Notes: generated from the letters alone by a model not told the origin. Counted from the stretch's first letter, positions 4,692 to 6,470 are shown. The stretch: DNA of 32,463 bases from Escherichia coli (GCF_003334385.1 NZ_QOWN01000051.1); one strand, 5' to 3'. Numbers and translations are program-made.

Positions 4692-4948
4692 TCACATTCC
4701 CCTGGTTTTTGTGGCTGTTTTCGATGAATTGAGAATAGCAACGATAATCTGATAAAAGAACCCGCTTAAATTTAATTCGCCGTATCTCGCCTTTTTGTTG
4801 AATAATATTCAACAATCTTTTCGCAGTGTGCGGTAGTGCAATATTTGTTTCTTTGACCCGATACCCTTTCACTCAATCAGGTTTTATTTCTCTATAGTCT
4901 GCACATGTAAGAGTAGCTTTCGTCCATGTCTAACCAGAGGGGAACAAG

Positions 4949-5446
4949 ATGAACGGACTCACGGCAACGGGTGTCACCGTCGGTATTTGTGCAGGGCTTT
5001 GGCAGTTAGTGTCTTCACATGTCGGGCTCTCTCAAGGATGGGAATTATTAGGAACCATTGGCTTCGTCGCCTTTTGCAGTTTTTATGCCGCAGGCGGCGG
5101 TAAATCGGGGTTTATCAGAAGTCTGGCGGTTAATTATTCCGGGATGGTGTGGGCGTTTTTCGCCGCGCTGACTGCTGGTTGGCTGGCCTCTGTAAGTGGA
5201 CTGTCCGCGTTCTGGGCGAGCGTAATTACTACCGTACCCTTCTCGGCGGTAGTGGTCTGGCAAGGGCGTTTCTGGTTACTGTCCTTTATTCCCGGTGGCT
5301 TTCTCGGCATGACGCTGTTTTTTGCCAGCGGGATGAACTGGACGGTGACGTTACTGGGTTTTCTGGCGGGTAACTGCGTGGGGGTAATTTCAGAATATGG
5401 TGGACAAAAATTAAGCGAAGCGACGACTAAACGCGACGGGTATTAA
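4949..5446 (+). CDS. yahC: Small polytopic inner-membrane protein (165 aa, DUF1097-like)
   Basis: Highly hydrophobic 165-aa ORF with several predicted TM segments; GAGG-type RBS 7 nt upstream; divergent from yahD. Confidence 0.8.
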   Translation: MNGLTATGVTVGICAGLWQLVSSHVGLSQGWELLGTIGFVAFCSFYAAGGGKSGFIRSLAVNYSGMVWAFFAALTAGWLASVSGLSAFWASVITTVPFSAVVVWQGRFWLLSFIPGGFLGMTLFFASGMNWTVTLLGFLAGNCVGVISEYGGQKLSEATTKRDGY

Positions 5447-5537
5447 AAGTTATTCAAAAATGATTATCTATCTTTAACCGATACCTCTACAGTCATAGCT
5501 GGAGAAATTCATAGTAGATAATGGCGAGAATGGTTTA

Positions 5538-6470
5538 ATGAACTCAATTTTTACCGAAGAGAATCTGTTGGCATTTACTACCGCTGCGCGTTTTGGCAGC
5601 TTCAGTAAAGCCGCAGAAGAGTTGGGTTTAACCACTTCCGCCATTAGCTACACCATTAAGCGTATGGAGACGGGGCTGGATGTGGTGCTGTTCACTCGCA
5701 GTACCCGCAGCATTGAGTTAACGGAGTCCGGGCGTTATTTTTTCCGCAAAGCTACCGACCTGCTGAATGATTTTTATGCCATCAAACGCAGTATCGATAC
5801 TATTTCGCAGGGCATAGAAGCGCGTGTGCGCATTTGTATTAATCAGCTGCTTTATACGCCCAAACACACCGCACGCTTGTTACAGGTGCTGAAAAAGCAG
5901 TTTCCTACCTGCCAGATTACCGTCACCACCGAAGTGTATAACGGCGTCTGGGATGCGATTATTAATAATCAGGCCAATATCGCCATCGGCGCACCCGATA
6001 CACTACTGGACGGCGGCGGTATTGATTACACTGAAATTGGCGCGATTCGCTGGGCTTTTGCTATCGCCCCGGATCACCCGTTAGCCTTTGTGCCGGAACC
6101 CATCGCCGAAAGCCAACTGCGTCTCTACCCTAATATTATGGTGGAGGACACCGCGCATACGATTAATAAAAAAGTGGGCTGGTTGCTGCACGGGCAGGAG
6201 TCAATTCTGGTGCCAGATTTCAACACCAAATGTCAGTGCCAGATTTTAGGTGAAGGAATTGGTTTTTTGCCGGATTACATGGTCCGTGAGGCGATGACGC
6301 AATCCCTGCTGGTTACCCGACAAATCCATAATCCGCGCCAGGATTCGCGCATGTTACTGGCGACTCAGCATTCTGCTACGGGTCAGGTGACGCAGTGGAT
6401 TAAAAAACAATTTGCGCCAAATGGCATATTAACGGGGATCTATCAGGATTTACTGCATCGGGAGAATTAA
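5538..6470 (+). CDS. yahB: LysR-family transcriptional regulator (310 aa)
   Basis: N-terminal LysR-type HTH (FTTAARFGSFSKAAEELGLTTSAISYTIKRMETGL) followed by a substrate-binding-domain-length C-terminus. Confidence 0.9.
   Translation: MNSIFTEENLLAFTTAARFGSFSKAAEELGLTTSAISYTIKRMETGLDVVLFTRSTRSIELTESGRYFFRKATDLLNDFYAIKRSIDTISQGIEARVRICINQLLYTPKHTARLLQVLKKQFPTCQITVTTEVYNGVWDAIINNQANIAIGAPDTLLDGGGIDYTEIGAIRWAFAIAPDHPLAFVPEPIAESQLRLYPNIMVEDTAHTINKKVGWLLHGQESILVPDFNTKCQCQILGEGIGFLPDYMVREAMTQSLLVTRQIHNPRQDSRMLLATQHSATGQVTQWIKKQFAPNGILTGIYQDLLHREN

Follow-up and report, generated by a model that had tools for sequence, protein, structure and literature searches.

The LysR-type regulator YahB and a predicted operator in the yahD/yahC intergenic region of Escherichia coli

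The DNA analysed here (hereafter the window) is a stretch of 32,463 nucleotides from Escherichia coli (GCF_003334385.1, NZ_QOWN01000051.1) that holds the yah/bet region, reversed relative to MG1655 (NC_000913.3 coordinate = 339971 minus window coordinate). It encodes the LysR-type regulator YahB (310 amino acids (aa); 5538-6470, + strand), and we consider it likely that YahB is the dedicated regulator of the operon yahD-E-F-G-(H)-I-J, acting by the mechanism proposed below. The predicted target operon begins with yahD (4086-4691, − strand), a gene for an ankyrin-repeat protein that diverges from yahB. Judged by inference from sequence, control of the yahD operon by YahB is well supported. An earlier note on this DNA had expected a LysR site of the T-N11-A type in the 257-bp divergent gap between yahD and yahC (4692-4948), and had seen no convincing dyad there by eye; a repeat search of the gap finds one, and it is a perfect palindrome. 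What was a generic LysR gene beside an operon can now be described with a defined 21-bp predicted operator, two auxiliary sites and candidate promoter elements. The arrangement is an ordinary LysR layout, paralogous to AllS and allFGHK. YahB, YahC and yahD-J all belong to that portion of the E. coli genome which is still uncharacterised; a literature search found no published functional assignment for YahB, yahE, yahF, yahG, yahI or yahJ.

A palindrome anchored to yahD

Site 1 (4795-4815), with the sequence TTGTTGAATAATATTCAACAA, is a perfect 21-bp palindrome that we predict to be the high-affinity recognition site of YahB. A repeat search resolves its architecture as 10+1+10 (TTGTTGAATA-A-TATTCAACAA); within it the T-N11-A core TGAAT-AAT-ATTCA runs from T4799 to A4811, and the centre (4805) lies 114 bp upstream of the yahD ATG. 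When the 257 bp were shuffled 20,000 times with dinucleotides preserved, 21 of the shuffles had an arm of at least 10 (P ~0.001). Site 1 is the longest short-gap palindrome across the whole window, and a scan of the window for the degenerate motif found no further copy beyond it. The second-longest short-gap palindrome of the window is a perfect 18-bp one, GTTATGTTATAACATAAC, at 29633-29650.

A genome scan with the YahB alignment yielded 80 loci from different species, with YahB identities of 79-99%; neighbouring genes were found by tblastn with the E. coli proteins, and 77 of these loci have upstream DNA. In every one of the 77, yahB adjoins yahD and diverges from it, with no gene between them in about 57; E. 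coli has yahC in that position. The adjacent and divergent placement of the LysR gene relative to the operon, as described in the earlier note, is therefore general among these loci. Two more distant species, outside this set, have yahB within the operon or as its last gene.

The best matches in the individual yahD-upstream regions give the site 1 consensus A-TTRTTGA-N7-TYAAYAA-T. Over 78 sequences the arms (TTRTTGA...TYAAYAA) are near-invariant and the centre is variable. Allowing at most one mismatch, the motif occurs in 74 of the 77 yahD-upstream regions (27 kb in total) versus three matches in the other 1.39 Mb of the same loci, which is an enrichment of more than 1,000-fold. Site 1 accordingly has the form expected of a LysR recognition site, a T-N11-A dyad upstream of the target promoter, and it is both conserved and anchored to yahD.

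This anchoring bears on a possible objection, namely that the palindrome serves as operator for nothing but the divergent yahC/yahB promoter, so that YahB would be mainly an autorepressor or a yahC regulator and the yahD operon would be controlled otherwise. LysR-type regulators commonly repress their own genes through such a site, and site 1 would lie near −47 of a candidate divergent promoter whose −10 is at 4837-4845. The distance from the centre of site 1 to the yahD ATG is, however, 105-125 bp in most genera (148-190 bp in Atlantibacter and Providencia), whereas the yahB or yahC ATG can be as near as 67 bp or as far as 607 bp, a nine-fold spread. The distant loci are instructive in the same respect. 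In Herminiimonas (YahB identity 71%) the order is yahD-E-F-G-permease-yahI-yahB on a single strand, with yahB last in the same operon, yet a related dyad (ATTGTTAAG..TTCAAAAAT), site 2 and the −10-like block described below are all kept upstream of yahD. In Pasteurella testudinis (YahB identity 61%) yahB lies between yahI and yahJ; here too a related dyad (CCTTTGAATAAAATTCAAAGG) stands upstream of yahD and keeps the TGAAT-N3-ATTCA core. Since the site is kept upstream of yahD even when yahB is elsewhere in the operon, we conclude that site 1 is part of the yahD promoter and is inherited along with yahB, and we find it very unlikely that the palindrome serves the yahC/yahB side only.

Auxiliary site, candidate promoters and binding data

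Additional conserved blocks were obtained from an ungapped alignment of 78 sequences anchored on the palindrome. Site 2 (4767-4779) is a degenerate copy in the same 13-nt frame (TAAATTTAATTCG in E. coli; consensus TAAAWWTNATTCA), which we predict to be an activation-type site. Its centre (4773) stands at a fixed 32 bp from the centre of site 1, on the yahD side, in the ungapped register of all 78 sequences. It sits in a conserved block (4752-4782), and its ATTCA half is common to site 1, site 2 and a third site close to yahB.

Two further blocks resemble promoter elements. The first, a −10-like block (4730-4742, − strand), reads GTTGCTATTCTCA in the yahD direction and TTGCTACTGTGAG in Herminiimonas; it is strongly conserved, keeps a fixed spacing from sites 1 and 2, and holds the candidate extended −10 TGcTATTCT, with a start near 4725 and without a good −35. 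The second (4828-4846, + strand; GTGCGgtaGtGCAatatTTT) is on the yahC/yahB side of site 1. Its pattern, GTGCG..G.GCAAT.TTT, is kept in loci with and without yahC, and it holds the candidate weak extended −10 TGcAATATT mentioned above, with a start near 4852. Both blocks may have promoter functions; the second would then be a divergent promoter on which site 1 takes an autoregulatory position, or it could be the site of another protein. It also contains a GTGCR direct repeat.

A simple promoter scan of 4500-6700 found no consensus sigma-70 promoter, which fits dependence on an activator. A terminator scan of the same interval gave terminator-like matches at chance level only, inside yahB, and an Rfam scan of 3500-8500 (E up to 1) gave no match, and so no known leader or riboswitch. 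Reading the conserved blocks as sigma-54, CRP or ArcA sites failed on inspection by eye, because the spacing was wrong or the match poor. A reporter-assay preprint lists a yahC promoter; its coordinates are unreadable, so it could not be placed on the sequence.

From the −10-like block to the block beyond site 1, the alignment delimits a predicted regulatory module of about 120 bp (4730-4846) that accompanies the yahD promoter in Enterobacterales, Aeromonas and one beta-proteobacterium. YahB identity is 84% in Aeromonas cavernicola and, as given above, 71% in the beta-proteobacterium Herminiimonas; these values point to horizontal transfer of the whole cluster. Cedecea davisae and Enterobacter sp. 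Cy-643 and Ag1 have a minimal form, in which yahB diverges from yahD-yahJ only; the intergenic region of these loci is 178 bp and contains sites 1 and 2, and the transcarbamylase and kinase genes are non-adjacent.

We propose that a YahB tetramer occupies sites 1 and 2, and that effector-bound YahB would recruit RNA polymerase to an otherwise weak yahD promoter, mirroring the activation of allFGHK by AllS. The effector is probably a ureido or carbamoyl compound or a precursor of one; these candidates are suggested by analogy with the oxamate branch of the AllS/AllFGHK system, which makes ATP via carbamate kinase. Because site 1 adjoins the −35 position of the weak divergent promoter, and because the promoter-like region of yahB follows a third related site, YahB probably autoregulates as well.

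The proposed arrangement is much like that of classical LysR promoters (CbnR, BenM, CatR), where the regulator gene is divergent and a strong dyad is combined with a weaker site about three helical turns nearer to a promoter without a good −35. It differs from them in two respects: yahC separates operator and regulator gene in E. coli, and the proximal promoter of yahB has a third related site in front of it; the yah sites are possibly also some 10-15 bp further upstream. Among individual regulators PunR (YdhB), a paralog of YahB, offers a close parallel, as an activator with a divergent target, punC, and a palindromic operator with a T-N11-A core (PMC8376909). That 23-bp operator was predicted by phylogenetic footprinting and later validated (PMC8376909). 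PunR differs in its half-sites (TCAA-N5-TTGA, versus TTGA-N7-TCAA at the predicted YahB site) and in controlling one transporter gene; its binding has been validated experimentally, whereas the YahB site is predicted.

Three points weigh against the proposed mechanism. First, the recognition and activation sites of LysR promoters have textbook positions of −65 and −35; if the −10-like block is the true −10, the centres of sites 1 and 2 would fall near −80 and −48, which is the 10-15 bp displacement just mentioned. Second, the last base of site 2 in E. coli is G, not A, so that site 2 is not a strict T-N11-A. Third, published chromatin immunoprecipitation with exonuclease (ChIP-exo) of chromosomally myc-tagged YahB in glucose M9 medium found three peaks only (tsaD/rpsU, nlpI and yhcC), and none at the yah locus. 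LysR-type regulators usually sit on their recognition site without inducer, and for this reason the absence is mildly negative. We take it as only weakly negative because expression was low, because no effector was present, and because PunR needed its effector in vitro, binding DNA in a polarisation assay only with adenine (PMC8376909). Low expression and the missing effector may explain why ChIP-exo missed site 1.

The same three peaks are what would be expected if YahB had its targets elsewhere, for example at the ChIP-exo sites, and another factor bound the palindrome, whether an ArgR-like protein or a global binder of AT-rich sites; the half-sites TGAAT/ATTCA do resemble the halves of ARG boxes. 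But the signal/noise ratios of the peaks are 1.29-1.99, near noise. ARG boxes, moreover, have a 4-nt centre and are paired, whereas site 1 has a fixed 3-nt centre and is single, and the site is co-inherited with yahB over three bacterial classes and essentially confined to this locus. We regard binding by such another factor as quite unlikely. The claim that YahB regulates yahDEFG, made in the earlier note, stands by inference, given the invariant adjacency, the yahD-anchored palindrome, its retention in rearranged loci and the paralogy to AllS; the ChIP-exo data, with no yah peak, do not bear it out.

Control of yahB and the predicted target operon

The third site forms part of a yahB-proximal element (5443-5466, + strand; TTAAAAGTTATTCAAAAATGATTA), which is a candidate YahB autoregulatory site, a candidate upstream part of the yahB promoter, or both. 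The 13-nt frame of site 3, TAAAAGTTATTCA at 5444-5456, overlaps the yahC stop codon and lies 94 bp upstream of the yahB ATG. Across the yahC-bearing genera the yahC-yahB spacer has an invariant core, TTAAAAGTTATTCAAAAATG (5443-5462), and where yahC is absent a homologous element, TTAAA-N5-GTTCAAAACTG, occurs 40-100 bp upstream of yahB. The pattern TAAAW-N3-RTTCA, which is in the same frame as site 2, occurs in the 180 bp before yahB at 71 of 81 loci, versus 9 of 4,050 shuffles; in the three Cedecea-type loci, with their short intergenic region, the match is site 2 itself. Between loci with and without yahC, similarity on the yahB side of site 1 stops about 55 bp past the palindrome, which indicates that yahC entered by insertion, separating the operator region from the control region that belongs to yahB itself.

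Expression agrees with a control region of this kind. Published RNA sequencing tables for glucose M9 give mean counts of 76 for yahB, 5.6 for yahC, 13 for yahD, 1.8 for yahE, 19 for yahF, 25 for yahG, 7.8 for yahI and 257 for yahJ. Expression from yahC to yahI is very low in this medium, and yahB has about 14-fold the reads of yahC (about 7-fold per unit gene length), so that a yahC-yahB operon is evidently not the only transcription unit of yahB. With about 30 times as many reads as yahI, yahJ also clearly exceeds the other operon genes, which suggests that it has a promoter of its own. A published ChIP-exo study of an unrelated factor, YfeC, has a strong peak at 334131-334162 (signal/noise 56) that is bound by RNA polymerase too; these coordinates appear to be those of the older NC_000913.2, which would place the peak at about 5033-5064 of the window, 84-115 nt into yahC. 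Such a peak might correspond to a promoter inside yahC that drives yahB.

YahB itself is LysR-like over its length: HTH_1 (PF00126) matches residues 9-66 (E 2e-18) and LysR_substrate (PF03466) residues 91-280 (E 7e-23) of the 310. Its best NCBIfam model is AllS (NF007501), at 267.1 bits, followed by PunR. As the score is below the 372-bit cut-off of the AllS model, YahB is a paralog of AllS and not AllS; the two E. coli proteins are 39% identical over 283 residues without a gap.

Several genes downstream of yahD are likewise paralogous to those of the AllS system, the oxamate branch of the E. coli allantoin regulon (allDCE/allFGHK). On the − strand of the window follow yahE (3183-4046), yahF (1646-3193) and yahG (228-1646), which are paralogs of AllH, AllF and AllG, and the further operon genes yahI and yahJ lie past the window start (L003:12166-14508, after a yahG-yahI gap at L003:11745-12165 that is just outside it). 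Calling open reading frames reproduced exactly the gene layout and 257-bp gap given in the earlier note, and all yah reading frames of the window are open. YahF scores 487.7 bits on the NCBIfam FdrA model, above its 433-bit cut-off, and Pfam finds the AllH, AllF_N and AllG domains on the yahE, yahF and yahG orthologs. AllF (FdrA), AllG (YlbE) and AllH (YlbF) together form oxamic transcarbamylase (PMC11326118). Three co-encoded subunits of the AllF (FdrA), AllG and AllH families are thus present and would make up a putative AllFGH-type enzyme. YahI is a carbamate kinase family protein whose gene is a paralog of allK, and yahJ is an amidohydrolase gene. The yah cluster differs from the AllS system in adding yahD and yahJ.

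AllS binds from −203 to −144 of allF and activates allFGHK, and its binding was unchanged by any metabolite tested (PMC12535856). The AllS-bound allD/allF region (−203 to −144 of allF) contains no YahB-like TGAAT-N3-ATTCA, only an unrelated AT-rich inverted repeat. Some yah clusters deviate in their enzyme genes: yahE, of the AllH family, is absent between yahD and yahF at L056:8969-9112 and in 19 other loci (Enterobacter, Lelliottia, Leclercia and Silvania-type), even though AllH is one of the subunits of the paralogous enzyme that has been characterised. On the other side of yahB, pdeL (6512-7606, − strand) is convergent with it.

YahC and the permease exchange

The gene yahC (4949-5446, + strand) encodes a 165-aa inner-membrane protein with six helices. 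YahC matches Pfam PF06496 (DUF1097) over nearly its full length (residues 9-152 of 165; E 6.5e-27). The earlier note had treated yahC and yahB as one control-and-uptake module. As a core module this does not hold: yahC is missing from most yahB loci and restricted to one clade, yahB keeps its own proximal element with or without yahC, and the reads of the two genes differ by the factor given above. We regard yahC as an accessory gene. Among the 77 loci it was found only in Escherichia, Kluyvera, Raoultella, Klebsiella, Pseudocitrobacter and one Citrobacter metagenome-assembled genome, and these loci form one clade in a tree of YahG, YahF and YahB.

The presence of yahC coincides with the loss of another gene. 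Most versions of the cluster have, between yahG and yahI, a gene for a polytopic membrane protein of 516-526 aa (for example L007:3477-5027 and L056:4421-6001, both − strand), which we call the permease; the name xanthine/AGZA permease comes from source annotations only, and the protein matched nothing among Pfam, NCBIfam and PDB sequences. It is 65-92% conserved from Proteobacteria to Firmicutes. All informative loci either have yahC and lack the permease (15 loci) or lack yahC and have the permease (50 loci), with no other combination. In E. coli the yahG-yahI gap is the REP-filled (repetitive extragenic palindromic) yahH (PMC11551758), and no remnant of the permease was found in it.

We propose that yahC was inserted between the operator and the proximal promoter of yahB in one lineage, the same that lost the 516-aa permease, and that YahC probably serves as a small channel or transporter in the membrane, passing a pathway substrate or an organic-acid product; this is the weakest step of the proposal. 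An AlphaFold model of YahC (predicted local distance difference test score 96.3) has six helices. Foldseek with this model ranked ALMT1 first, with an ALMT-like membrane-domain fold at an E of 0.85, which is not significant, and a fold search of AFDB50 returned DUF1097 members only. It is plausible, on the strength of the permease exchange, the DUF1097-AllG associations given below and the ALMT-like model, that YahC acts in the pathway as a channel or transporter. The transport part of the YahC claim in the earlier note can be kept at that strength; its uptake part is unsupported, and YahC could equally export an acid product rather than import.

Two results count against this step. The likeness to ALMT is structural only: YahC has 9% identity and a mere 165 aa, it lacks both detectable sequence homology to the ALMT/aromatic-acid-exporter channels and the cytosolic C-terminal domain of ALMT, and hhalign of the DUF1097 profile against E. 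coli AaeB gave a probability of 0.7%, that is, no detectable sequence relation. Also, the exchange of permease for yahC is a single event within Enterobacterales, so that its perfect complementarity amounts to one observation there.

Alternatively, YahC might be an unrelated passenger that entered between yahB and yahD by chance and has no role in the pathway. It is missing from most clusters, its gain in Enterobacterales happened once, and other DUF1097 genes stand in unrelated contexts, for example beside a Rieske protein. Its gain nevertheless coincides exactly with the loss of the permease, and there are two more, differently arranged associations of DUF1097 with the AllG family: a Neisseriaceae genome has yahB divergent from allF-allG-allH-DUF1097, without a permease, and in a metagenomic contig a DUF1097 gene (47% identical to YahC) directly follows the AllG gene, which is the canonical permease position. 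That yahC is a mere passenger strikes us as quite possible, if short of probable. More speculative, and put forward here as a tentative and rather doubtful suggestion, is a broader idea: DUF1097 proteins such as YahC would be small six-helix channels or transporters with an ALMT-like fold, hitherto unrecognised as a family, that carry organic anions or ureido acids. In the lineage of Escherichia, Kluyvera, Klebsiella and Raoultella one of them would have functionally taken over from the nucleobase-type permease, in a pathway controlled by YahB that ferments carbamoyl compounds and yields ATP.

That E. coli lacks the permease of most cluster versions bears on the substrates to which K-12 could respond. 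It also raises the question of whether the K-12 system is a decaying and effectively cryptic remnant, with its cis-elements kept by descent and induction lost along with the permease. The empty yahG-yahI gap and the very low expression from yahC to yahI would agree with this, as would the decay of the locus in single strains: NZ_CP092452.1 (H1) has an IS1A insertion inside the matched yahD-yahB stretch, and in EC529 yahG is annotated as a pseudogene with an internal stop (L001:8229-9647). Yet the locus is present in 5,050 of 5,426 complete E. coli genomes (~93%), at 96-100% identity and at least 80% coverage, with the matching stretches annotated as yahD, yahC and yahB. The palindrome is perfect in the window, and its changes in other Escherichia species affect mostly the central bases (one also alters an arm base); the reading frames are open, and the yahC-bearing clade keeps the cluster across six genera. 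Control of the operon by YahB remains our preferred interpretation, and a cryptic remnant seems unlikely. Finally, one permease-type protein labelled E. coli is 89% identical to the Citrobacter one, so that the cluster may exist in its permease version in some E. coli.

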